A stretch of 64,000 bases of DNA from Acidimicrobiia bacterium (GCA_016871335.1 VFZF01000003.1:63205-127204), one strand, 5' to 3'. Positions 23,200-44,134 are shown, numbered from the stretch's first letter. A program made the numbers and translations. Notes: generated by a model from the sequence alone, not told the origin.

Positions 23200-24246
23200 G
23201 TGCGCGCCATGATGAATAATCAAAGGGTGATGATGAGCCTGTGGCGAGCAATGGTGATGGTGCTGGCGACGGCCGGGGCGCTGTCGTGCGCCTCCGTGTC
23301 GTCCCTGGAACCGGGGAGTCGCGTCTCGCTCGACGCGTATGCGGAGTTTCGTCTGAATGACCTGCTGATCGTCGAGGGGCAGCGGGTGTCCGTCGATGCG
23401 GCCACCGTCTTCAGGGGGCGTCATGCCCGCAGCCTGGGCCAGATCGTGCTCGGGGATGAGGTCAGGGTCCGCGGGGTCCGAGCGGCGGACGGCAGCGTCC
23501 GTGCCCTCGATATCGAGGCAAAACCAAACGGGGACGCACTCTTCGAGGCCGAAGTGCTCTCGGTCACCAACGAGATGGAAGGGCTCTGGGTCAAGCGCGG
23601 GATGATGTTTGAACCCGGTCCGACCGACGAGGACATCGCGGTGATCGGTTCACTGCTGACCTCCGGGCCCCAGGTCGATCGCGTGGCGCGGATTACCCGT
23701 CGGTTGATGCCCGCCTATCTGCCGGCATCAGCCATCCGCGTCTATGTCGTGGACACGGACGAATGGAACGCCGCGGCGATGGGCAACGGTGCCGTCTGGG
23801 TCTATACCGGCCTGATGGAGGCCATGTCGGACGATGAACTCGCGGTGGTCATCGGACACGAGCTGGCGCACGTGACCCACGAGCACTCGCGCCGGTCAGC
23901 CAAGTCGGAGGTCTGGAGGCAGCTGTTGGGGTTGGGGGTGGCGGCCGCCGCCGAGACCATCGAGAACGACGTGTTGCGCACGGCGGTGCAGGTGACGGCG
24001 CTGGCCGGCACCGTGGCCAGCCTGAGCACATACAGTCGCGGCCATGAGGACCAGGCCGACCGTGTGGGCCTGCGGTATGTGCACGAGGCCGGGTTCGACG
24101 TGACGGCCGCGCCCAGAGTGTGGACCCGGTTCCAGGAGAAGTATGGCAACGACAACCGTATGCTCAACTTTTTCCTCGGCAGTCATTCCAGACCCGCGGA
24201 TCGGATCCGGAACATGGAGGCCGAACTGGCCCTCAATTACCGATAG
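23200..24246 (+). CDS. M48-family zinc metalloprotease, probable lipoprotein
   Basis: Lipobox-like ALSCAS, an N-terminal beta-rich domain, then HELAHVTHEH with a downstream HEDQADRVG. The start is ambiguous: GTG 23200 or the ATGs at 23209-23236. Confidence 0.8.
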   Translation: MRAMMNNQRVMMSLWRAMVMVLATAGALSCASVSSLEPGSRVSLDAYAEFRLNDLLIVEGQRVSVDAATVFRGRHARSLGQIVLGDEVRVRGVRAADGSVRALDIEAKPNGDALFEAEVLSVTNEMEGLWVKRGMMFEPGPTDEDIAVIGSLLTSGPQVDRVARITRRLMPAYLPASAIRVYVVDTDEWNAAAMGNGAVWVYTGLMEAMSDDELAVVIGHELAHVTHEHSRRSAKSEVWRQLLGLGVAAAAETIENDVLRTAVQVTALAGTVASLSTYSRGHEDQADRVGLRYVHEAGFDVTAAPRVWTRFQEKYGNDNRMLNFFLGSHSRPADRIRNMEAELALNYR

Positions 24247-29579: not shown

Positions 29580-30107
29580 ATGATTCGTATCCTGGTTGCC
29601 GATGATCACCCGGTTGTGTGTCTTGGCCTCCGTCACCTGCTGAATGGACAGCCGGACAGCACGGTCGTAGGAGAGGCCGCTGACGGACGAGACGCGCTGA
29701 CGCAGATCGCGAACCTGCGCCCTGACGTGCTGCTGCTCGGTCTGCACATGCCGAACCTGCCTGGACTGGACACACGCCGGGAACTGGCCGACTGTATTCG
29801 CACGGTGGTACCGGGCGGCTACCGGTTGCGAGGCCGTGCCGTCACCAACCTTGTCACGGAGCTGGAAACGCTGGTGCGATCGCAACGCGACGCTCCGGTG
29901 TCCCGTGTGCAGCTGACACCCCGCGAGATGGAAGTGGTGCGCCAGGTGGTGATCGGCGGCACGAATCGGGATATCGCGACGCAGCTGGGAATCACCGAAG
30001 ACACCGTCAAGCGTCACCTGACACATGTCTTCGACAAGACCGGCGTCTCATCGCGCCTCGACCTCGCCCTGTTCGCCCTGAAACATCTCGGCCTCGCCGT
30101 GGTCTGA
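29580..30107 (+). CDS. LuxR/NarL-type regulator with degenerate receiver domain
   Basis: ILVADDHP is followed by DVLLLGLHMP, with Gly where the phospho-acceptor Asp is expected. The receiver is about 35 aa shorter than normal. The HTH is intact (LTPREMEVVRQVVIGGTNRDIATQLGITEDTVKRHLTHVFDK). Confidence 0.8.
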   Translation: MIRILVADDHPVVCLGLRHLLNGQPDSTVVGEAADGRDALTQIANLRPDVLLLGLHMPNLPGLDTRRELADCIRTVVPGGYRLRGRAVTNLVTELETLVRSQRDAPVSRVQLTPREMEVVRQVVIGGTNRDIATQLGITEDTVKRHLTHVFDKTGVSSRLDLALFALKHLGLAVV

Positions 30108-30260
30108 CGCGATGACTGGGGCGGCCGGCCTGGACGGGGAGCCTCCTCCTGCACGCCGTCGCCACGGCTTTCGGCCAGGGAACCCGCTGGTTGCGTGACC
30201 GGTTGTCCACCGTGACGGTCGTGCAGGAGGCGCTCGACAGGCACTGTGCCACAATCGCGC

Positions 30261-31301
30261 ATGCCGATCCCCCGTCCCTGTGCGCCTCGTCGTCCACGCG
30301 CTGCCCTGTGGCTCTGTCTCCTGTGGGCCCTGCTGGCGCCGTGGCACGCCGCCGCTCAACCGCCGCAGGCCCTCGCCCTGCGCGATCAGCTGGCGGTGGG
30401 CTATCTGCAGCTGGAGCTGGCCCTGGCCGAGCGCCCGGTCACGGCCACCGACGCCCGCATACAACTCAATCGTGAGTTCGATCGCCTGACCCTGACCTTC
30501 TTCGCGGGCAACATGACCGGCGCGATAGGCATGCTCGACACCCTGGTCCGTACCACCGTGGGTGATGCCGCACGTCTGACGATCCTGCGGTCGCGCGCGG
30601 AGGAGCGTCTGACCGCACTGACGGCCGCCCGCCGTGTGCAGCAGGTCGGTGCGGCGACTGTCCCGCATTTGTTGCACGTGCCACCGGGCGAGGCGCCGGC
30701 GGCGGGTTGGCCGGTCGTGGTGGCCGTACACGGCAGCGGCGGCGACGAACGGATGTTCTTCGGAGGGTACGGTGCCGGATCCATTCGGGCGCTTGCCGAG
30801 TCCCACGGTGTGGCCGTCGTCACTCCGCTGGCGCCGCTGTCACCTGCGGCCCTGCTGGGACTGGTGGACGCCTTGGCGGACTCACATCGCCTTGACGGTA
30901 CCCGCGTCGCGCTGCTCGGTCACTCCATGGGGGCGGGCGTCGTGTCACGCGCTGCGGCGGAACACCCCGCTCGGGTGCACGCCGTCGTGTGCATCGCCGG
31001 CAGTTGCGCGGCCGCCGCAGCAGAGGGCGCGCGGATGCCGGTGCTGGTGATCGCCGGTGCGCTCGATCCGCTGGCCGGTGCAGCTGGACTTGAACAGCAG
31101 ATGGGGGCCCTGCGGCGTGATGGCCGTGTCGTCCAGTTCCGGCGGTACGACACGGAAGGGCACACGCTGGTCGTCGGTCAGGCGTTGCCCGACGTCATGC
31201 GCTGGCTGGCCGACCAACTGTCGCAGCGAATGCCCCGCAGCGGCCTTCAGTCCATCCGTCAGCAGGATCACGCCAGGGAGAAACAGACCCACGCCCGGTG
31301 A
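30261..31301 (+). CDS. Secreted alpha/beta hydrolase (esterase/dienelactone-hydrolase-like)
   Basis: Signal peptide MPIPRPCAPRRPRAALWLCLLWALLAPWHAAAQ and nucleophile elbow LLGHSMGAG. I prefer ATG 30261 to GTG 30246. Confidence 0.75.
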   Translation: MPIPRPCAPRRPRAALWLCLLWALLAPWHAAAQPPQALALRDQLAVGYLQLELALAERPVTATDARIQLNREFDRLTLTFFAGNMTGAIGMLDTLVRTTVGDAARLTILRSRAEERLTALTAARRVQQVGAATVPHLLHVPPGEAPAAGWPVVVAVHGSGGDERMFFGGYGAGSIRALAESHGVAVVTPLAPLSPAALLGLVDALADSHRLDGTRVALLGHSMGAGVVSRAAAEHPARVHAVVCIAGSCAAAAAEGARMPVLVIAGALDPLAGAAGLEQQMGALRRDGRVVQFRRYDTEGHTLVVGQALPDVMRWLADQLSQRMPRSGLQSIRQQDHAREKQTHAR

Positions 31302-31342
31302 CGCCCCCGGGGCGGAACGTCACACCGAGTCTGTGGCGGGGG

Positions 31343-31401
31343 CCCTTCACGCCTCGTTGTGACGCGTGGGGCAGTGCGCCGTACCGGCGCGGACCGCCGT
31401 C
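31343..31401. repeat. Direct repeat copy A (imperfect duplicate of the pnp stop-codon region)
   Basis: CCCTTCACGCCTCGTTGTGA...TGGGGCAG...ACCGGCGCGGACCGCCGTC aligns with 41574-41634 at about 80% identity by hand count. The blocks that align exactly are 14, 8 and 15 nt. Confidence 0.7.
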
Positions 31402-31440
31402 GGTGGTGCTGCTGACTGTGCGTTGGGCCATGCGGCAATC

Positions 31441-33123
31441 CTACCGGCGGGCTGTTTCGACAGTGTAAGTGTGCCGCCCGCCCATGACCGTCAGCCTGGC
31501 CTTGACCTGATGGAGCGTCGTCGGCGGCACTGCGAAAATATCCTCGGACAACACGACAAAGTCGGCGAACCTGCCGACCGCCAGCGTGCCCTTCACATCG
31601 TCTTCAAAACTCGCGTACGCCGCATCACGGGTGAAGTGACGCACCGCGGCGTCCACCGAGATTCTCCCCTCGGGATACCAGCCGCCTTCAGGGGTGCCAT
31701 CCGGCAACTGGCGCGTGACGGCCGCGTGGATGCCACGCATCACCTCCATCGTGAACACCGGGTAGTCACTGCCGAATGCCTGCACGGCGCCCGCGTCATC
31801 AAACAGCTTGAACGCGTTGGAGCGAGACGCGCGATCAGGTCCCAGTGCCGGTGCGTAGTTGGTGAGCGTGATCGCGTCAGGGCTGGCGAACATCGCCTGC
31901 GTCGAGGCGATGACGCCAAGCGCCTTGAAGCGCGGCAGGTCGGTCAGGTCGGGCACCTCGACGTGCTCCACGCGATGGCGCCGGTCGCGCGGGCCGTTGA
32001 CCCGCGCTGCGTGTTCAAACGCGTCGAGCGCCATCCGGATCGCGCGGTCGCCGATCGCATGCAGCTGCACCTGCAGCCCCACGCGGTCGTAGTCCGTCAC
32101 CACGCGGTTGAGATCCTCCTGCGGCCACATCGGCAGGCCCGTTTCGCTGTGATGGGCGTAGGGGTCGAGCAGCGCGGCCGTATGGGCGTCGACCGTGCCG
32201 TCGAGCATACCCTTCGCAATGCCGAACTGCAGCAGGCCGTCGCGATGCGCGTCGCGCACGGCGACGAACTCCTGCAGGCGCTCCGGCGTGATGTCGCGCG
32301 CGAACGGTACGGCCACTCGAAGCCGGGCCTTCAGCGTCCCTTCGCGCAGCGCCCGCGTGTACGCCTCGAACTCGATGCCAGACGCGCCGCTGCCGCTCGC
32401 GACCTGCAGCGAGGTCAACCCGAACGACGCGGCCGTGTCGAGTTGTTCCAGCAGCGCGCGGTACACCTGGTCGGCGGTCAGGTCGGGCATCAGCCGACGC
32501 ACCAGTCCCGACGCCGCCTCCTTCAACACCCCGGTCGGCTCGCCGCGGGTGTCGCGGTCGATGCGGCCGTTCTCGGGATCGCGTGTGGCGCGTGTGATCC
32601 CTGCCAGCGCCAACGCGTGCGAGTTGACGACCACTTGATGCCCATCGCGATCGGTGAGCACGACGGGGCGGTCAGCAAACACCTCGTCGAGGTACCGGCG
32701 ATGCGCGCGGTGGTCCGGAAAGTCCGACGGTCCCCATCCGCGTCCAGTCACCCACTCGTCGGGCCCAAGCGTGGCGGCAAACTCGCGCAGCCGACGCTGG
32801 ATTTCGGCGACGGTGCCGGCCTCGACCAGATCAGCCGTGCGCCGTGTCGGCAGATGCCAGTGCGCGTCGTTGAACCCGGGTACCACACGGGCGCCGCCAA
32901 GATCCACCACCCGCGTCGCGTCGATGCGATGCCGTTCCACCTCATCCGCAGTCCCAATCGCGACGATGCGGCCTGCGGCGATGGCGAGGGCCTGCGCCTC
33001 CGGCTGCGCGGCCTCGCCGGTCCAGATCCGCGCATTCGTGTAGATGACCTCCGCAGGCGGCCGGGCACGGCTGCCGCACGCGACAACGTGAAGGGTCAGG
33101 GCAAGAGCCACGGCGTGGCGCAT
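31441..33123 (-). CDS. Amidohydrolase-family metal-dependent hydrolase (YtcJ-like), probable lipoprotein
   Basis: MRHAVALALTLHVVACGS, then VIYTNARIWTG...VPGFNDAHWHL. C-terminal metal ligands follow (HAIGDRA..., HRVEHVE, GSDYPV). I use the ATG at 33123. Confidence 0.88.
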   Translation of the reverse strand: MRHAVALALTLHVVACGSRARPPAEVIYTNARIWTGEAAQPEAQALAIAAGRIVAIGTADEVERHRIDATRVVDLGGARVVPGFNDAHWHLPTRRTADLVEAGTVAEIQRRLREFAATLGPDEWVTGRGWGPSDFPDHRAHRRYLDEVFADRPVVLTDRDGHQVVVNSHALALAGITRATRDPENGRIDRDTRGEPTGVLKEAASGLVRRLMPDLTADQVYRALLEQLDTAASFGLTSLQVASGSGASGIEFEAYTRALREGTLKARLRVAVPFARDITPERLQEFVAVRDAHRDGLLQFGIAKGMLDGTVDAHTAALLDPYAHHSETGLPMWPQEDLNRVVTDYDRVGLQVQLHAIGDRAIRMALDAFEHAARVNGPRDRRHRVEHVEVPDLTDLPRFKALGVIASTQAMFASPDAITLTNYAPALGPDRASRSNAFKLFDDAGAVQAFGSDYPVFTMEVMRGIHAAVTRQLPDGTPEGGWYPEGRISVDAAVRHFTRDAAYASFEDDVKGTLAVGRFADFVVLSEDIFAVPPTTLHQVKARLTVMGGRHTYTVETARR

Positions 33124-33324
33124 GCCGCGCAGTCTACACGCATCCGCCCGCCGATCGGCGCAGGAAAGAGCCACGGAGCAAAAACCCCGGGGCTTCATGA
33201 CGATGTGCGGATGGGGCAGCACCTGCCGCGCCACGTGGCGGCCAGGCAGACGTCGACGACGACTGGATCGAGCGAAGCGCGCGCCACAGGGCGCCGCTGC
33301 CAGACACGAACCGGCGGACTGTCC

Positions 33325-33945
33325 TCAGGTCGTCCTGCGTTTACTCTTCGAGACGGTCTGCAGCAGCGTCGCGGCCGTGAACGGCTTGGGCAGCCTGGCC
33401 GAGACGGAGATGTCCTGCGGCAGGTGTCGGGTGTCAACGTCCGACTGGCCGCTCATCACGACGCAGGGCACCCGCGGGTCGAGTTGCCTCATCGCGCGCA
33501 GCGCCTGCGGGCCGTCGAGCACGGGCATTGTGAGATCCGTGATCACCAGAGCGATGGACGAGTGCGCCTTGCGGAAGCGCTCGATCGCTTCTGCTCCGTC
33601 CTGCGCGAGCAGCACACGATAGCCGAACGCCTCAAGGGTGGCGGCCATCGTGGTTCTCACGGAGCTGTCATCTTCGACCACGAGCAGCATGTCGCCGTCC
33701 CCGCGCGGGAGATCGATCGTCCGAGCCTGGGGCTCGCTGCCGACGGCATCAGCATCGGCATCGGCGGGGAAGTACAGACGGAAGACGCTGCCCTTCCCGA
33801 CGTCACTGTAAATCATCATGAAGCCCCCATGGGCCCGGACGATGCTGAGCGTCGTGGGAATGCCGAGCCCCGTGCCGCTCCCGACCGGCTTGGTGCTGAA
33901 AAACGGCTCATAGATGTGCGAGAGCACCTCGAGCGTCATCAAGGG
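33325..33945 (-). pseudogene. Hybrid histidine kinase remnant: end of HATPase domain plus intact receiver domain
   Basis: [24 protein letters not shown] is followed by a full REC domain (MLLVVEDD...VITDLTMPVLDG...KPF). The sensor, HisKA and the N/G1 boxes are absent. The REC could still be made from an internal Met. Confidence 0.65.
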
Positions 33946-34456
33946 CGTGGACTGGGTAACGGCCAACGCCGTGCACCCAGCCGTGGCCAACATGAGCCTT
34001 GGTGGCGGCGTCAGCGAGGCGCTCGACGCTGCGGTGGTCAAATCCGCATCCAGCGGTGTGTTCTATGCGATTGCCGCCGGCAATAGCAGCACCGACGCTT
34101 GCACGTCGTCGCCCGCAAGAACGGGCCGAGGCGACAACGGCATCATGACCACCGCCGCGATCGACAGCTCCGACTCGGAAACCAGCTGGAGCAATTACGG
34201 CGCGTGCGTCGATGTCTGGGCGCCGGGGCAGAACATCCTGTCCACCAAACGAGGGGGCGGCACAACGACCATGTCTGGGACGTCGATGGCGTCGCCGAAC
34301 GTGGCCGGGACGGCAGCGCTGGCGCTGCTCAAACCCAAGATTGCAGTCGTCGACGCGTCAGGGCTGGAGATTAGACTGAAGAGTGACCTGGTCAACACCT
34401 CCAAGTTTGGCAAGGGGAGCGTCCTGATCATGCGCGTCAACGCCGACCCGTACTGA
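33926..34456 (+). pseudogene. Subtilisin-family (S8) peptidase remnant, C-terminal half only
   Basis: IKGVDWV...ANMSLGG...AIAAGN...SWSNYG...VWAPG...MSGTSMASPNVAG. The Asp and His catalytic regions are absent. The 5' end abuts the kinase remnant head to head. Confidence 0.7.
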
Positions 34457-34715
34457 GCCCACCCAAAAAGGCCGTCCCCCTGGAGTGAACGACCCGCTGA
34501 CGCGAGCCGGACGTGCTCGGCGCCATCCGATGCATCGTGCCTGTCTCGCTGCCGCCAGGCGCGTAGTCCGGTCGACCTCCTCGTCCTCGACCCAGCGTCG
34601 GATAAGGGATAAGATCGGCGGTGAAGCTCCGGCCGTATGGCCGTGGTGACCGAGGGGGCTACGATCTCGGCGCCCTGCGCGAGGGGATCGAGGCGATTAT
34701 GACCGCGCTGGACCA

Positions 34716-36737
34716 ATGACATCCACGCTCCGGAAACTGGCGGTCGGGCTGGTCATCGGGCTGGCTGCCTGGCTGGCCGCGACGGGGCTGGCGCGATTCG
34801 GCCTGCTCGACGATATCGAACTGGCGGCCTTCGATCGGCGGCTCATCGCCACGCATCGGCCCGCTGACGCCCACGACGACATCGTCATTGTGGAGATCAA
34901 TGAGTCGTCGCTCGACGCGCTGGAACCGGTGTTCGGCCGGTGGCCCTGGCCGCGGCTGGTGCACGCCGGGGCCGTGGATTACCTGTCGCGCGCCGGCGCG
35001 CGGGTGATCGCCTACGACATCCTGTTCGTGGACCGCGACCTTCGCGGCGCGTTTCCGGTGGGGGGGCGCACCGTGAGCGGCGCCGAGTCCGATCAGGCCC
35101 TGATTGACAGCGTGGGCCGCGCCGGGAATGTGGTGCTTGCCGCCAATGCCGCGTTTGAGGGGCTGGAGAGCGGCGCGGCTCCGGAGGCCGTTGCACCGCC
35201 GCTGCCCGGGATTTCGTACGCGCCGGGCGAAGGATTCCAGCGGCGCCCCTATCTCACGTTGCCGATCGAGCCGCTGGCGAATGTGGCTGCGGGCGTGGGC
35301 CACACCTTCCTGGTCCTGGATCCGGACGGCACGGCACGCCGCATCCTGCCGTTCGTCGAGGCGCAGGGGCGGATGATTCCGTGGCTCGGACTGAGCGCCG
35401 CGCTGGCCGCGACGAATCGGCAGCCGGAGGACGTGTCGGTTGACGGCGAGTGGCTGCGCATCGGCGACACACGCCTCGCGCTGCTGGCCGATCCGGTGCC
35501 CGGCACGCCGCCGCAGCCGTCCCGGCAGATGCTGCTCCGGCAGCATGGTCCGTACGCCACGGCGGACGGCGCCCGCACGTATCCGTCGTACTCGTTTTAT
35601 GACGTGCTGCGCGCTGAGGACGCATGGCACGCGGGGGAGGCGCCGGCGCTCGATCCTGACGTCTTTCGCGACAAGGTGGTGTTCGTCGGTCTGACCGCAC
35701 TCTCGGAGAACGACGTGCACACGTCGCCGTTCGGCGGACCGCCGCTGCCAGGCGTACAGTTGCACGCGGCCGCGGCCGATGACCTGCTGTCGGCCCGCAC
35801 CATGCGGCGCGCGCCGGCGTGGGCCAGCGCGGCCGTGACGGCGGCGGCGAGCGTGGTGACCGGCGTGTTGGCGGTGGTGTGTCTCCTGCGCCTCGGCCTG
35901 CCGGCGATTGCCGTCTTTGCCATGACGCTGGCCTGGGGGCTCACGAGCGCCGTCGGGCATGGCCTCTGGCTGGCCAGTGTGACGCCGGCGCTCGGGCTGA
36001 CGCTGGCGTTGTTTGGCGGGACGATCTGGCAATGGGCGGTGGAGGGCCACCAGAAGCGGCAAATCAAGGCGCTCTTCGGGAAGTATGTGTCGCCGGATGT
36101 GTTCTCGCATCTGGTCGCGCATCCCGACGTGGCGCTGGGCGGACAGCGGCGCGAGATGTCGGTGCTATTCTCTGACATCCGGGGATTCACCTCCACGTCC
36201 GAGAAGGCCTCGCCGGAGGCGGTTGTCGCCCAGCTGAACGAGTACTTCACGGCGATGGTCGAGGTGCTCTTCCGGCATCAGGGCACGCTCGACAAGTTCG
36301 TCGGCGACATGGTGATGGGGCTGTTCGGGGCGCCGGTCGCCGATCCCCGGCATGCCGACCATGCGGTCGGGGCGGCGGTCGAGATGGTGACGGTGCTCGA
36401 CCGGCTGAACGCCGGCTGGGAGGCGAGGGGGATGCCGCGGCTGGAGATCGGCATCGGGGTCAACTCCGGTGAGATGATTGCGGGTAACATCGGTTCCTCC
36501 TCGATCATGAGCTACACGGTCATCGGAGATGCGGTGAACCTCGGCGCGAGGCTCGAGTCGCTCAACAAGGACTTCGGCACGCGCATCCTGATCAGCGAGG
36601 CGACCCGGGCGCGGCTGACGATGCCGGTGGCGACGCGCGAGATGGGGGCGGTGACGGTCAAGGGCAAGACCACGGCGGTGCTGGTGCACGCGGTGGGTGC
36701 CGGGGCCGGCCGGGATGGCATGCAGGAGGTCGGGTGA
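34716..36737 (+). CDS. CHASE2-sensor class III adenylate/guanylate cyclase
   Basis: N-terminal TM helix and CHASE2-like periplasmic region (IVIVEINESSLDALEPVFGRWPWPRLVHA...AYDILF), then several TM helices. The cyclase core is REMSVLFSDIRGFTS...DKFVGDMVMGLFGAP...YTVIGDAVNLGARLES. Confidence 0.9.
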   Translation: MTSTLRKLAVGLVIGLAAWLAATGLARFGLLDDIELAAFDRRLIATHRPADAHDDIVIVEINESSLDALEPVFGRWPWPRLVHAGAVDYLSRAGARVIAYDILFVDRDLRGAFPVGGRTVSGAESDQALIDSVGRAGNVVLAANAAFEGLESGAAPEAVAPPLPGISYAPGEGFQRRPYLTLPIEPLANVAAGVGHTFLVLDPDGTARRILPFVEAQGRMIPWLGLSAALAATNRQPEDVSVDGEWLRIGDTRLALLADPVPGTPPQPSRQMLLRQHGPYATADGARTYPSYSFYDVLRAEDAWHAGEAPALDPDVFRDKVVFVGLTALSENDVHTSPFGGPPLPGVQLHAAAADDLLSARTMRRAPAWASAAVTAAASVVTGVLAVVCLLRLGLPAIAVFAMTLAWGLTSAVGHGLWLASVTPALGLTLALFGGTIWQWAVEGHQKRQIKALFGKYVSPDVFSHLVAHPDVALGGQRREMSVLFSDIRGFTSTSEKASPEAVVAQLNEYFTAMVEVLFRHQGTLDKFVGDMVMGLFGAPVADPRHADHAVGAAVEMVTVLDRLNAGWEARGMPRLEIGIGVNSGEMIAGNIGSSSIMSYTVIGDAVNLGARLESLNKDFGTRILISEATRARLTMPVATREMGAVTVKGKTTAVLVHAVGAGAGRDGMQEVG

Positions 36738-37819
36738 TGATGCGGCTGATGATCGGGGGCACACTGGTGATGGCCGGCCTGGCGGCGCCGGCCTCGGCGC
36801 AGCTGGGGCAGGTGGCGGGCCGGGTCCGCAACGCGGTGGACGCGGTCGATCAGGTGAAGGACCTGATCATCACCGAACAGGAAGAGATGGCGATGGGGGC
36901 CGCGATCAGCGAGAAGCTGCGGCAGAAGTACGGCGTGGTGCAGAATCAGGCCGTCCACAAGTATGTCTCGCTGGTGGGACACGTCCTGGCAGCCTCGAGC
37001 ACCCGGCCCGCCCTCTCCTGGACGTTCATCGTGCTCGACACCGATGGCGTCAATGCGTTTGCCGCGCCCGGCGGGTACATCCACATCACCCGCGGGGCGC
37101 TGGCGCTCATCCGCAACGAGTCGGAGCTGGCCGGCGTGCTCGGCCATGAACTGGCCCACGTCACGCAGAAACACACGATCAACGCGATCAGGAAGTCGAA
37201 GACGCTCGATCTGGGTACGACTGCGCTTTCACGCAGCCAGTTGCTCGATCGGGTCACCGACGCGGCGTATGAGAGCCTGCTCGAGAACAACTTCGACCGC
37301 GGGGACGAGAACTCGTCGGACGAGATCGGCATCCAGTTGTCGAATGCGGCCGGCTATGCGCCGTCGGGCCTCGGGTCGTTCCTCACCAAGCTGGCCGACC
37401 GCAACAAGGACCTGCAGGAGCGCAGCGGCGTGTTTGCGTCGCACCCCGAAACCAAGAGCCGGCTCGACCGCCTGAAGAGCCAGATCAGCTCGAAGAAGCT
37501 GACGGCCACCGCGACGGTGGCGGCGCGGTACACGGCCACGATCACCTACGCCCCCACGCCCGTCACGGCGGTCGCCACCGCTGCGCCCGGCGCGGCCGCG
37601 ACGCCGGCGGCCCCCAAGCCTGGTGACAGCCGCTTCGGCCTGGGCGGGCTGACCTCGAGGCTCGGCGGGGAGAAGACGGGCAACCAGACGGTGGCGTCGG
37701 CGGGTTCCCGCGGGGTGAATCCGGATCGTGACGCAAAGGGCGGGCCGAATCCACGGGCGGTGGCGGTGACGATTACCGCCGCGGACATCGCGGCGTTCCG
37801 CCAGGGCATTACGGGGTAA
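36737..37819 (+). CDS. Periplasmic M48-family zinc metalloprotease
   Basis: Signal peptide MMRLMIGGTLVMAGLAAPASAQ, the motif HELAHVTQKH, and a downstream GDENSSDEIG. The start codons (GTG 36734, ATG 36737 or 36740) overlap the cyclase stop, and GGAGG lies at 36725-36729. Confidence 0.85.
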   Translation: MMRLMIGGTLVMAGLAAPASAQLGQVAGRVRNAVDAVDQVKDLIITEQEEMAMGAAISEKLRQKYGVVQNQAVHKYVSLVGHVLAASSTRPALSWTFIVLDTDGVNAFAAPGGYIHITRGALALIRNESELAGVLGHELAHVTQKHTINAIRKSKTLDLGTTALSRSQLLDRVTDAAYESLLENNFDRGDENSSDEIGIQLSNAAGYAPSGLGSFLTKLADRNKDLQERSGVFASHPETKSRLDRLKSQISSKKLTATATVAARYTATITYAPTPVTAVATAAPGAAATPAAPKPGDSRFGLGGLTSRLGGEKTGNQTVASAGSRGVNPDRDAKGGPNPRAVAVTITAADIAAFRQGITG

Positions 37820-37824
37820 CGCGC

Positions 37825-39267
37825 GTGGACCACTCGGCGGCCGGTCATTTCTACGCCAGCCTGGCCCTGCTGGCCGGCGTGGCGCTGCTCTCGCTGGTGG
37901 CGCGCAACAGCAGGATCCGCCGGCGCCTGCACCTGACCGCCATGGTCGCGGGTGCGGCGGTCGTGTTGCACCTGGCGCTCGCCGGCGGCCCCTGGCTCGC
38001 GTCCGTCGGCGCGCAGTTGGCGGTGACCGAACGGCTGCTGCTCACGCTTGGCGTCATCCACGCGACGGTCACCGCCGCCTTTAATCCCTGGTTCGGCGAC
38101 AGTACCCGGGAGCGGACCCCCGGCATCGTCCAGAACGCGGTGGTGCTGGCAGTGTTCGGTGTGTGCGCGACGATGGCCTTCCCCGGCCAGCTGCTGGCGA
38201 CGTCGGCGGTCGGCGCCGTCGTCATGGGATTCGCCGTCCAGGACACGCTCAGCAATTTTTTCGCCGGACTGGCGCTGCAGATCGACCGGCCGTTCAAGCC
38301 CGGCCACTGGATTGAGGTTGGACCATTCCAGGGGCGTGTGCAGGAAATCACCTGGCGCGCGACCAAGATCCAGACCAAGGCCGGCAACCTCGTCGTGGTG
38401 CCCAACAACATCGTCGGCAAGGAAGCCATCAATAACTACTCCGAGCCGGCGGCGCCCACGCGCCTCATCGTGGAGGTGGGCACCGGCTATCAGCATCCGC
38501 CGAATGTCGTGCGCGAGGCCCTGATGGCCGCGATGCGGCGGTGTCCGAGGGTTCTGGCCGAACCGAGGCCTGATGTGGTGATGACCGACTTCGGTGCCTC
38601 GGCGCTCATCTTCCACGCGCGGTTCTGGGTGTCCGACTTCTCGACGGATGCGCGCGCCCGTGACGAGGTGCGCACGGCGATCTGGTACGAGTTCCGCCGC
38701 CGCGGGATCGAGATTCCCTGGCCGATTCAGATTGAGTATCAGCGCGAGGAGGCGCCGGTCGATCTTGATGCACAGCTGGAGCGGCGGCGGAGCCATCTCG
38801 CGGCGGTGCCGCTGCTGGCGCCGTTGCCGCCCGAGGGGCAGCTCGCGCTGGCGGGGGCGGCCACCGAGCGGCTGTTCGGCCGTGGGGAAGCCCTCGTCAG
38901 CGAAGGGGAGCCTGGCGCCTCGATGTTCATCGTGCTGGACGGGTCGGTGGCCGTCACGGTGGGCGGGGAGCGGCGCGAGGTGGCGGTCACGCAGGCCGGT
39001 GGCTATTTCGGGGAGATGTCGCTGCTGACCGGCGACGCGCGGTCGGCGACGGTCACTGCACGGGAGGACACCACCGTCCTGGAAATTTCCGCCGACGCGT
39101 TTGGCGCCTGCGTGCGCAGCCATCCGGCGCTGCTGGGCGCCATTGCCGATGCGGCGGTGGCGCGCCGCCAGGAACTCGACGCCGTCCGGCAGGCGCCCGG
39201 CGCCGCGCGCGCGCCGGCGGCGGCGTCCCTGATCGAGCGGATGCGGCGGTTCTTCCGCGTCCACTGA
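37825..39267 (+). CDS. MscS-family mechanosensitive channel with C-terminal cyclic-nucleotide-binding domain
   Basis: MscS core LSNFFAGLALQIDRPFKPGHWIEV...GRVQEITWRATKIQT...VVVPNN. The cNMP domain reads GEALVSEGEPGASMFIVLDGSV...GGYFGEMSLLTGDARSATVTA. Confidence 0.9.
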   Translation: MDHSAAGHFYASLALLAGVALLSLVARNSRIRRRLHLTAMVAGAAVVLHLALAGGPWLASVGAQLAVTERLLLTLGVIHATVTAAFNPWFGDSTRERTPGIVQNAVVLAVFGVCATMAFPGQLLATSAVGAVVMGFAVQDTLSNFFAGLALQIDRPFKPGHWIEVGPFQGRVQEITWRATKIQTKAGNLVVVPNNIVGKEAINNYSEPAAPTRLIVEVGTGYQHPPNVVREALMAAMRRCPRVLAEPRPDVVMTDFGASALIFHARFWVSDFSTDARARDEVRTAIWYEFRRRGIEIPWPIQIEYQREEAPVDLDAQLERRRSHLAAVPLLAPLPPEGQLALAGAATERLFGRGEALVSEGEPGASMFIVLDGSVAVTVGGERREVAVTQAGGYFGEMSLLTGDARSATVTAREDTTVLEISADAFGACVRSHPALLGAIADAAVARRQELDAVRQAPGAARAPAAASLIERMRRFFRVH

Positions 39268-39449
39268 GTCCGCCAGGGACATCGGGACTGGGACGCGTGA
39301 TCGGCTCCTCGTCCTGCGTCATCGCCTCCGAGAACAACGTGCCGTCGGCAATGGGGGCCGTCCGAGGTTTCGGGGCTTGACCGTCGCAATGGCGGCGGTG
39401 TCTGATGAACGCGTTTGTCCCCGCAAGGGGCGGAACAGGGAGGGTGACG

Positions 39450-40100
39450 GTGAGCAAACGAATCATTGAGGTGGCTGGTGTCGTGGTGCTGATGAGCGTG
39501 GCGACGGCGTGCGGCAAGTCGGCGGAACAGCAGGCGGCCGACGAAGCGGCGCAGGCCGCGGTCACCGCGGCCCAGAATACGGCCGCTTCTGCGGCCGACA
39601 TGGGCAAGACCCTGGAAGGATTCACCAATGCATTGAGCGGTGGCAATGAGGGCACGGCGACCGTCGAACCGGTCACCTTCCAGTCACTGATCGCCCTTCT
39701 ACCTGACGTGAATGGCTGGGAAAAAGAGAAACCCAGAGGGGAGCGGATGACTATCCCCGTGCCGTTTTCGCAGGCGGAGGTCAGCTACCGGAAGGGCGAT
39801 GCGAGTGTGGACCTCACGATTGTCGACACCGGTTTTGCGCAGCTGCTGTTTGCGCCGTTCAGCATGATGATGGCCACCGGATACAGCCGTGAGTCGAGCG
39901 ACGGCTACGAGCGCGCCGTCACCATCGACGGCCATCCCGCGCTGGAGGAATGGCGCAACGACGGCCACAGCGGCGAACTCACGGTCGCGGTTGCCAAACG
40001 GTTTCTCGTGACGGTGCATGGCTCGGCGGTGCCGGATGGGGCCACGTTGCGGACGTTCACGTCGGCAATGAATCTGGGGAAATTGGCCGGACTGAAGTAG
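39450..40100 (+). CDS. Lipoprotein, unknown family
   Basis: GTG 39450 has GGGAGG 6 nt upstream. The signal peptide (M)SKRIIEVAGVVVLMSVATAC carries a lipobox. The ORF-track start at 39405 is less likely. Confidence 0.6.
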   Translation: MSKRIIEVAGVVVLMSVATACGKSAEQQAADEAAQAAVTAAQNTAASAADMGKTLEGFTNALSGGNEGTATVEPVTFQSLIALLPDVNGWEKEKPRGERMTIPVPFSQAEVSYRKGDASVDLTIVDTGFAQLLFAPFSMMMATGYSRESSDGYERAVTIDGHPALEEWRNDGHSGELTVAVAKRFLVTVHGSAVPDGATLRTFTSAMNLGKLAGLK

Positions 40101-40311
40101 ACCGGATGGGGACGCCGGCCCCAGGCATGACACCCTCCATGTCCGACGATGGGAGCGCCCCCCTCAGGCCGGAGCTGGGAGTTGTCCTGGAGAACGTCAA
40201 CCCTCGGCGTGCCTGAGGATGGGCGTGCGCTGTTCTGTCAGCGCGACCGTCGCCTGAGTGCCGTCAGTCGCATCGGGGGCGGGCTTCGATGCGGTGTCTG
40301 TCCGCCGGCAA

Positions 40312-40779
40312 TCAATCAGCACGATGCCGGAAGACCTGCGGAACATATTTCGCCGCGAGGCGGGCAAATCGAACCGGGTAATACAAGGGGAACAGCGCAG
40401 GCGGCAAACTCACCAGCGCCAGATCCGGTTCGGCCGGCGCCCTGAGCAGCGCGGCGTAGTGACGCACTTTGTCCCACGGCGCCTCGGCCAGCCGGGCGTT
40501 GAACCGGGTGAGTTCCATGGTCGTTGGGTGTGCCAGCACGGTGCGTCGAAGGTATGACGTCACGTGCGCCGCAGCAGCGGTGACCGAGCGGTCCGCGCGC
40601 GCGCGGTCGAGCAGTGCGTCTGGACTGCCAGCGTCCAGCACGTCATGCGCAAGCAGAAGTCCCAGCAGCACGGGGCGCGCACATCGGGCGTGTACCGCGA
40701 GATCGAACGCCTCGGTCCAGTCGAGCGTCAGGCGAACCAGGCGCGCAATATCTGCCAGCCAAATCAGGCGCCGGGGGAC
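40312..40779 (-). pseudogene. Remnant of an uncharacterised nucleotidyltransferase (PF14907-like), C-terminal part only
   Basis: RRLIWLADIARLVRLTLDWTEAFDLAVHARCARPVLLGLLLAHDVLDA resembles the C-terminal helical region of that family. The N-terminal catalytic half is absent. Confidence 0.4.
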
Positions 40780-40858
40780 GCCAGAGAGCCTTCTGTACTG
40801 ACTGCCGATGCTTAAGCATCGGCTCCGATCGGGCGTTGAACGCCCCGGGGGAATCGCC

Positions 40859-41400
40859 GTGATCTGTGACCGAGCCCGTCCTGGCGCCATTGAGGCGGAC
40901 ACGGCATGGCGCACCATCGTCAGAAGACGGACCGGGGGGCGAGCGCTGGCGGTGGGGCTCGTCCTCGTGTCGGCCCGCGGAGCCGGTGTTCATGGCGCTG
41001 CAGCCCCGCTGGTCGGGCAGACGCCACGACCGCTCTCGGTCACCGATGCCGGCGATTTCTATTTCTTCGATGGCAAGCCGGTGCATCTGGACCGCGCCAC
41101 ATCCGAATGCGTGGTGGGACTCGCCGATGGGACCGACCCGCAGGCACTCGTCGAGAGCCTGCCAGTGCCTCTTGCTGCAGGGCAGCCCATGCTGGTGAAG
41201 GGGCGGCGGTTCGTCCTGCTGACGCTGCAGGCGTCTCAACCGGCCGTCGGTCTCAAACGGGTACTCGCGGCATTGCGCGCCAGGCCAGACGTGTGGTTTG
41301 TATCGCGTATCTCCTGCCAGCCGGCGACGAACGAGGTGGTCGTGAGGTATGCGGGCGGCGTGAACGCGTTTGGCCGACTCGCGCAGCGAACCCCGGCGCT
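40859..41400 (+). pseudogene. Possible remnant of a secreted-protease N-terminal (pro)domain
   Basis: Strong G/C bias at third codon positions supports this frame. A signal-like RRRTGGRALAVGLVLVSA is followed by FYFFDGKPVHLDRATSECVVGLADG...EVVVRYAGGV. No catalytic domain follows, and the ORF runs through the pnp terminator. The family call is tentative. Confidence 0.3.
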
Positions 41401-41477
41401 TCAACGTGTGTCGCAGCCGAGGACCGAAGGGCCCGTTATGTTCGGGAAAGACCCACGTAATACGGACTATCGGCGAG

Positions 41478-41509
41478 AAAAAAAAGCCGGGCAGGTAAGC
41501 CTGCCCGGC
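41478..41509 (-). terminator. Intrinsic terminator of pnp
   Basis: On the minus strand it reads GCCGGGCAGG-CTTA-CCTGCCCGGC, a 10-bp perfect stem, followed by TTTTTTTT. Confidence 0.9.
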
Positions 41510-41530
41510 TCTCGTGTTGTTCGGCGTGCC

Positions 41531-41560
41531 GGCCGACTTCAAGTTCAGTCGGCCCTACGT
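41531..41560 (-). repeat. Hairpin family 2, third copy (in the pnp 3' UTR)
   Basis: On the minus strand it reads ACGTAGGGCCGACTGAACTTGAAGTCGGCC. It has the same ACGTAGGGC leader and the same CTGAACTTG loop region as the two copies at 7942-8004. The variable stem triplet is different but compensated. Confidence 0.75.
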
Positions 41561-41573
41561 ATTGTGCTCCCAG

Positions 41574-41613
41574 CCCTCCACGCCTCGTTGTGAGGCCAGT
41601 GGGGCAGCGCAGT

Positions 41614-41634
<21 letters not shown>
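41574..41634. repeat. Direct repeat copy B (covers last 7 codons, stop and first ~40 nt of the 3' UTR of pnp)
   Basis: Aligns with 31343-31401 in the same orientation. It contains a small hairpin, CCAC-GCCTC-GTTGT-GAGGC-CA-GTGG. Confidence 0.7.
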
Positions 41635-43815
<2,181 letters not shown>

Positions 43816-43867
43816 GTGTCTTGTCCTTCTGCTCTCTACTGTGTGCTTGTGGTGCGTGCGCGGGAGG

Positions 43868-44134
43868 CTACTTGCGGATGCCGAGGCGCTTGATCAGCTC
43901 CAGGTAGCGATCCGCGTCCTTGCGCTTCACGTAGTCCAGCAGACGACGCCGCTGGCCGACGAGCTTGAGCAGGCCGCGGCGTGAGTGATGGTCCTTCGCG
44001 TGCGTCTTGAAATGTTCCGTGAGGTAGGTGATGCGTTCTGAGAGAATCGCCACCTGCACTTCGGGGGAACCTGTGTCGCCTTCGTGGGTCTTGTAGGTGG
44101 TGATGACTTCTGTCTTACGGTCTTTGGTGAGCAC
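43868..44134 (-). CDS. rpsO: 30S ribosomal protein S15
   Basis: [53 protein letters not shown] start with GAAGGAA upstream. Confidence 0.97.

Follow-up and report, generated by a model that had tools for sequence, protein, structure and literature searches.

Among cyclases with a CHASE2 sensor, only CyaK, CyaD1 and CyaD2 of Sinorhizobium meliloti have been studied functionally, and these respond via the envelope protein NsrA to a protease-sensitive protein signal, ribosomal protein uL2 (PMC13001267, PMC7529298). On the side of cyclic nucleotide reception, the bCNG (bacterial cyclic-nucleotide-gated) channels are cyclic-nucleotide-gated homologues of the channel MscS (Caldwell et al. 2010 and Malcolm et al. 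2012, cited in PMC13591265), whose physiological role is poorly explored and for which a structure is lacking, according to a 2026 review (PMC13591265). Here we analyse a 64,000-nucleotide (nt) stretch of DNA (the window; all coordinates are counted from its start) that carries, tightly packed on one strand, genes for a CHASE2 adenylyl cyclase, a secreted M48 protease and a bCNG-type channel. On balance, we lean towards the view that these genes form a conserved three-gene signalling operon that would convert an extracytoplasmic cue into ion or solute flux through cyclic AMP (cAMP).

The NsrA-Cya-Clr pathway of S. meliloti resembles this locus in that a CHASE2 cyclase gene is translationally coupled with the gene of a dedicated extracytoplasmic accessory protein. 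In the S. meliloti pSymB sequence (L169, 1850-5509), we found an open reading frame (ORF) that ends exactly at the cyaK start and encodes FecR and tetratricopeptide repeat (TPR) domains with a faint C-terminal barrel match; this ORF corresponds to the published NsrA and is unannotated in the PLSDB record. The rhizobial accessory is thus a FecR and TPR outer-membrane protein, with or without the barrel, and has no M48 gene near it, while here the accessory is an M48 protease. Similarly, the cAMP receptor of S. meliloti is a Crp-type transcription factor, Clr, and here it would be a channel. Searches for CHASE2 with M48 or metalloprotease, or for CHASE2 with cyclase and mechanosensitive, returned no relevant paper in the searchable literature, and none there tied a bCNG channel to a cognate cyclase or protease, the original bCNG papers lying outside it. 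These searches are consistent with the statement of the initial annotation of this DNA that the three-gene arrangement is uncharacterised. Receptor-cyclase second-messenger modules with dedicated envelope accessory proteins are already known; the version that joins CHASE2, M48 and bCNG is new.

ORF calling and a Pfam profile search of the window ORFs gave three intact, tightly spaced ORFs on the + strand, and all features described below lie on this strand unless stated otherwise. The first (34716-36737) encodes a CHASE2 receptor-type class IIIb adenylyl cyclase of 673 amino acids (aa), assigned by Pfam, PDB alignment and hydropathy; the second (36734-37819), a secreted M48 zinc metalloprotease of 361 aa, assigned by Pfam and fold matches; and the third (37825-39267), a bCNG-type MscS-like channel with a C-terminal cyclic nucleotide monophosphate (cNMP)-binding domain, assigned by Pfam and PDB alignment. 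The three packed ORFs were therefore present where the initial annotation had placed them, and the hidden Markov model search matched every domain that it had named (CHASE2, Guanylate_cyc, Peptidase_M48, MS_channel and cNMP_binding). At the cyclase/M48 junction (36724-36742), read from the sequence, the cyclase TGA (36735-36737) is overlapped by two candidate M48 starts, GTG at 36734 and ATG at 36737, with ATG 36740 next and an AGGAGG upstream of the candidates at 36724-36729. The M48 stop codon, TAA, lies at 37817-37819, and the channel GTG follows 5 nt later at 37825. Both junctions are as first described, with M48 start codons on the cyclase stop and the channel 5 nt further on. The M48 gene is predicted from this arrangement to be translationally coupled to the cyclase gene, and the three genes would be transcribed as one operon. 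A scan of the locus found no terminator-like site inside the three-gene unit, and there was no Rfam match across 30000-44000. A promoter scan gave no sigma-70-like site, the sigma-70 model being uninformative for Acidobacteriota.

The arrangement recurs across a bacterial lineage. A homology search with the protease returned thousands of homologues, and those that carry a taxon name belong to Vicinamibacterales. In a GTDB scan with one genome per species, 406 species had a protease relative, and for the best 80 loci, from Vicinamibacterales/Acidobacteriota, we used the window proteins as tblastn queries to assign the neighbours. In 79 of the 80, the gene immediately upstream of the protease is a CHASE2 cyclase on the same strand, and in 72 the gene immediately downstream is the MscS-cNMP channel; some apparent neighbour gaps are frameshifts in metagenome-assembled genomes (MAGs) built from long reads. 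Of the 69 loci where the cyclase/M48 junction could be measured, 63 have a candidate M48 start that overlaps the cyclase stop; the median gap is -4 nt at this junction and 7.5 nt between M48 and channel. Thus, the expectation that the three genes co-occur beyond chance is borne out by the neighbourhood survey. In addition, a mirror-tree comparison of five domains across 35 species loci showed strongly correlated pairwise divergences (r = 0.75-0.88), which suggests that the triad genes have been inherited together; CHASE2 and M48 were the top pair (r = 0.88, partial r = 0.62), although as evidence this is weak. From these data the triad looks like an ancestral, lineage-wide unit across Vicinamibacterales rather than an accessory gene set. 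Two observations concern the records themselves. Six loci (L029, L031, L032, L064, L073 and L082) are titled Bifidobacterium, Bifidobacteriaceae or Acidimicrobiia, and these are likely mislabelled MAG records. A 962-aa gene call (P0122) joins the CHASE2 cyclase to the M48 signal peptide; we do not count it as a true fusion, because read-through or an artefact of gene calling where the two genes overlap would probably account for it.

Further from the window, the cyclase and the protease stay together more widely than the channel does. A search of 1.84 billion representatives with the protease found full-length relatives with the same C-terminal tail, described below, down to 34% identity. In the best eight metagenome loci the cyclase adjoins M48 in all eight, and the channel is also present in six. 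Among the relatives of one such representative (P0141), which include proteins annotated as Acidobacteriota or Thermoanaerobaculia, the protease still adjoins a CHASE2 cyclase, and the order of the genes changes: cyclase and M48 are divergently oriented in L166 and L167, and in L168 M48 comes first, then the cyclase and a convergent MscS-cNMP gene. More distant, short M48 genes numbered 26 when only those with sufficient flanking sequence were counted, and 11 of these lie within 4 kb of a gene for a CHASE2 protein or a cyclase. A second cassette was found in this set, in MAGs or M48 relatives annotated as Gammaproteobacteria or Gallionella (L159, 3787-9068; L171, 3152-8089; L172, 186-5381; L173, 3364-8068). 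It encodes a CHASE2 cyclase, an SH3_3 protein of about 160 aa, a tail-less M48 of about 280 aa and a protein of about 420 aa, whose gene overlaps the M48 stop and which matches FadL/Toluene_X in L172 and L173 and no Pfam family in L171 and L159. We located no description of this proteobacterial four-gene cassette. It resembles the window locus in having a CHASE2 class III cyclase followed by a secreted M48 on the same strand, and differs from it in the SH3_3 and ~420-aa genes and in its lack of the tail motif; conversely, none of 91 Acidobacteriota loci has an SH3 or barrel gene. As judged from these neighbourhoods, the cyclase-protease link persists through changes of gene order and across phyla; the conserved core is the cyclase with M48, and the channel is a clade-specific addition.

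The product of the cyclase gene matches CHASE2 (1.2e-49, aa 19-380, nt 34770-35855) and Guanylate_cyc (1.1e-23), with the cyclase domain at aa 479-653 (nt 36150-36674). By hydropathy, the CHASE2 domain is bracketed by an N-terminal transmembrane (TM) helix (aa 8-26) and a TM cluster (about aa 366-440), as expected of a CHASE2 sensor; this places the sensor in the periplasm and the cyclase domain in the cytoplasm. The best solved relatives of the latter are 2W01 (Synechocystis), 3R5G (Pseudomonas aeruginosa CyaB) and 1WC0 (Spirulina CyaC), with E-values down to 1e-37. Aligned to 3R5G and 1WC0, the class III homology domain carries the metal-binding Asp pair (in FSDIRGF and GDMV), the transition-state Asn/Arg pair (in VNLGARLES) and the substrate residues Lys (in DKFVGD) and Thr (in SYTVIGD). 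A Lys/Thr substrate pair is the class IIIb adenylyl cyclase signature and specifies ATP, not GTP, with the Thr taking the place of the Asp found in other class III subclasses. CyaB and CyaC have the same two residues, so the proposal that DKFVGD and SYTVIGD hold the adenylyl cyclase pair agrees with the alignments, while 2W01, which we take to be the Synechocystis guanylyl cyclase Cya2, carries Glu and Gly at these positions. The catalytic motifs are kept in 73-79 of 79 orthologous loci: DK[FY]xGD occurs in 77 and the Thr motif in 78, and a Glu at the Lys position occurs in none. The domain thus holds every residue needed for cAMP synthesis and is a predicted class IIIb adenylyl cyclase.

At the other end of the proposed pathway, the channel product matches MS_channel_2nd (4.2e-20), MS_channel_3rd (2.6e-11) and cNMP_binding (6e-21). 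Following N-terminal TM helices seen by hydropathy, the MscS pore helix and cytoplasmic core (aa 121-307, nt 38185-38745) align with residues 94-279 of Escherichia coli MscS, with matches to MscK (7UW5) and MscS (2VV5). The protein is not a canonical MscS, as it scored 69 bits on PRK10334 against a cut-off of 321. Its C-terminal domain (aa 349-432, nt 38869-39120) aligns with the cNMP-binding domains of PKA, PKG and MloK1, and its phosphate-binding cassette, FGEMSLLTGDARSATV (aa 395-410, nt 39007-39054), is intact, as had been claimed; FGE[ML] is kept in 69 of 70 channel orthologues. The domain aligns with those of MloK1-type K+ channels in particular (PDB 1VP6 and 4MUV; E about 5e-12), and the MloK1 cassette, presumably FGEMALISGEPRSATV, is very close to that of the window channel. 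In contrast, MloK1 is a tetrameric K+ channel, and the pore here is of the MscS type, for which solved MscS structures show a heptamer. The bCNG channels share this plan, with an MscS pore-lining helix and a vestibule of beta and alpha-beta domains followed by a cNMP-binding domain that carries a G-E ... R-[ST]-A cassette. We therefore predict a bCNG-type channel with a cytoplasmic cAMP-type binding domain, in this case from Acidobacteriota, whereas the family has been described mostly from cyanobacteria.

Between the two lies the gene for the protease, which had been described as a signal-peptide-bearing M48 enzyme with a HELAH site. The description is upheld by a Pfam match to Peptidase_M48 (2e-28) and a Sec-type signal peptide (aa 1-22, ending PASA|QLG). 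The protease domain (aa 46-252, nt 36869-37489) is BepA-like: its closest solved structures by sequence are the Geobacter M48 peptidase 3C37 (7e-25) and E. coli BepA (5e-18), Foldseek returned the same two targets with a probability of 1.00, and, as in these signal-peptide-bearing periplasmic proteins, HExxH lies within an M48 fold (HELAH, nt 37145-37159), with the His of SHP aligned to that of THP in BepA (YfgC). The zinc site occurs in all 80 protease orthologues. Unlike BepA, the protein has no TPR; it continues instead into a disordered linker with the motif SRFGLGGL...ASAGSRGV (aa 267-328, nt 37532-37717) and a structured C-terminal element of about 30 residues (aa 329-361, nt 37718-37816). 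We thus predict a soluble periplasmic BepA-like M48 zinc enzyme without TPR repeats. The linker is of low complexity, and its motif, SRFGLGGL...ASAGSRGVNPDRDAKGG (written as a single peptide, SRFGLGGLTSRLGGEKTGNQTVASAGSRGV), is followed by a conserved end segment, V.VT.T..E.A.FRKGI.G. This tail is invariant across a 15-sequence alignment. In the AlphaFold2 model, aa 267-328 score below 50 in the predicted local distance difference test (pLDDT), and the 10-residue blocks over aa 331-360 reach 74-87; a disordered stretch followed by about 30 structured residues would place the motif in a loop tethered at both ends. A probable role for the motif is that of a docking loop or a regulatory bait. The window encodes one more M48 paralogue, at 23200-24246; it is unrelated to this one, is 348 aa long and has an N-terminal DUF5666 and no linked cyclase.

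On the reading that we favour, the periplasmic protease would act on the input of the CHASE2 sensor, which lies in the same compartment, by processing a protein or peptide ligand or the sensor ectodomain, and would in this way set the activity of the cyclase. The cyclase would then make cAMP, and cAMP would bind the C-terminal domain of the channel and alter its gating. The compartments predicted by hydropathy match this scheme, CHASE2 and M48 being periplasmic and the cyclase and cNMP-binding domains cytoplasmic. Several points weigh against it. The channel is missing at 8 of the 80 loci, and the proteobacterial cassettes showed no cNMP-gated channel, which makes it one possible output rather than an obligatory one. 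Around the rhizobial CHASE2 cyclases inspected (Rhizobium jaguaris and cyaK of S. meliloti), no match to M48, SH3 or a barrel was found, and we therefore reject the stronger proposal that every CHASE2 sensor has the protease as its partner. The mirror-tree signal for CHASE2 with M48 is only marginally above that of other domain pairs, and in the AlphaFold2 monomer the tail motif is disordered rather than docked on the protease. As regards the output, E. coli was not protected by bCNG channels against osmotic downshock, and how these channels respond to cyclic nucleotides has no structural explanation, according to the 2026 review (PMC13591265). Finally, transcription as one unit, catalysis, cAMP binding and the substrate of the protease are all things that we infer from sequence.

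The strongest competing explanation is that M48 is a co-regulated quality-control protease, all three products being needed under the same stress, such as osmotic or envelope stress, and the CHASE2 input remaining untouched. Such an envelope-stress operon would account for the closest characterised relatives of the protease being BepA and LoiP, for the membership of the channel in the osmoprotective MscS superfamily, and for the unlinked paralogue at 23200-24246, which points to housekeeping roles for M48 enzymes in this genome. The protease itself, however, scores far below the cut-offs for both of those relatives: it reached 115 bits on the BepA model NF052400 (cut-off 570), with no TPR match, and 58 bits on the LoiP (YggG) model NF052399 (cut-off 365), and its signal peptide has no lipobox Cys. 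Moreover, a housekeeping protease would hardly be expected to keep a CHASE2 cyclase as its neighbour when the gene order varies in three ways and when, in another phylum, the partner genes differ, and the 4-nt overlap in most loci suggests coupled, roughly stoichiometric synthesis. That the pairing is kept through rearrangements, and in a different cassette, weakens this rival, and we regard it as unlikely.

A different possibility is that the tail of the protease is itself a signal. Here, the tail would be a precursor from which the motif is cut out, by the protease or by another enzyme, and would serve as the ligand of the CHASE2 domain on the releasing cell or on its neighbours. It is easy to see the attraction of such self-contained peptide signalling, as the motif, present once here, lies in disordered sequence flanked by structured parts, is kept in relatives with as little as 34% identity, has no match to a known family (the tail hit none in Pfam), and occurs in three to four tandem copies (SRFGLGSL...AEVTGSGAARGLGDEG), separated by Lys/Glu-rich spacers, in four relatives (P0149, P0314, P0318 and P0326); the characterised CHASE2 cyclases, too, sense a proteinaceous signal. 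Cleavage of the motif is purely hypothetical, however, and since the M48 of the proteobacterial cassettes is tail-less, the tail cannot be the ligand of CHASE2 in general. Bait, docking element and pro-ligand are all conceivable roles for the motif, and it would serve equally well as a docking or autoinhibitory element. We consider peptide signalling of this kind improbable.

It is tempting to go one step further and to speculate that M48 is the missing extracytoplasmic co-receptor for a large branch of CHASE2 proteins, that in Acidobacteria the tethered, tandemly amplifiable tail motif is the ligand, or pro-ligand, that the protease displays or sets free and CHASE2 reads, and that the resulting cAMP drives flux through the MscS-type channel. 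We offer this as a long shot. If true, the operon would be a self-contained bacterial counterpart of the eukaryotic sensory pathways that lead from receptor-cyclase to cyclic-nucleotide-gated channel.

The surroundings of the triad in the window differ from those in its relatives. An imperfect direct repeat of about 62 nt, at 31342-31402 and 41573-41635, brackets a 10.2-kb segment (31403-41572) that includes the three genes; the copies are 76-84% identical over two gapless stretches and have an exact core of 15 nt, CACGCCTCGTTGTGA, in common. The right copy extends over the 3' end of pnp. The repeat is reminiscent of attL/attR sites, and a scan of ORFs and Pfam matches showed no integrase or transposase in the segment. 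Two divergent gene remnants, both truncated at the 5' end, lie immediately upstream of the cyclase gene (33325-34456, overlapping at 33914-34041), one with a histidine-kinase ATPase fragment and a receiver (- strand) and the other an S8 subtilase fragment (+ strand, profile positions 95-259 of 288), which look like the scar of a deletion or rearrangement. The usual flanks of the triad in relatives (UbiA, COX15, TPR, OCD and proline racemase) are absent from the window. A strong intrinsic-terminator-like hairpin, with a 14-bp stem and a T-run, lies on the - strand downstream of pnp (41482-41513).

The window also differs in the gene that follows the channel. A predicted lipoprotein of 231 aa (39405-40100, plausible lipobox VATAC) lies there on the same strand; it falls in no Pfam family, in line with the initial annotation, which had called its family unknown. 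The spacer is 137 nt (39268-39404) and not the roughly 180 nt given there. No terminator-like site was seen in this spacer, and a weak one lies 3' of the lipoprotein gene (40207-40228). Homologues occur in 40 of the 80 loci, where one or two paralogous copies lie on the opposite strand, 4-7 kb downstream of the triad (for example L001, 14935-16136), and in the window the gene instead adjoins the triad. Its membership of the unit is uncertain. The displaced lipoprotein gene and the missing flanks together indicate that the locus has been rearranged in this genome. The earlier view of the segment as accessory therefore stands in part, since repeats do bracket it and its flanks differ from those of relatives, and fails in part, since the domains co-diverge and the G+C content of the triad matches its surroundings; the framing as an accessory island is weakly supported. 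That a rearranged 10-kb mobile or accessory segment merely brought the three genes together, as the repeat, the truncated kinase and subtilase genes and the missing flanks might suggest, is barely credible and is already contradicted by the neighbourhood survey, since 72 other species have the triad with unchanged order and spacing, in surroundings that are mutually syntenic and differ from those here, and since no integrase or transposase was seen in the segment and its G+C content is that of its surroundings.

CHASE2 sensors are widespread, and their ligands are essentially unknown beyond one rhizobial pathway. A conserved periplasmic protease partner in two phyla points to protein or peptide processing in CHASE2 sensing and provides a concrete protein with which to study it. 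Similarly, an operon that pairs a cognate cAMP source with a bCNG channel would be a natural system for asking what gates these channels, and why. Vicinamibacterales are mainly known here from metagenome assemblies, and most of their signalling is uncharacterised; in these bacteria, the locus offers CHASE2 and bCNG, two families of which little is understood, concrete partners that can be tested.

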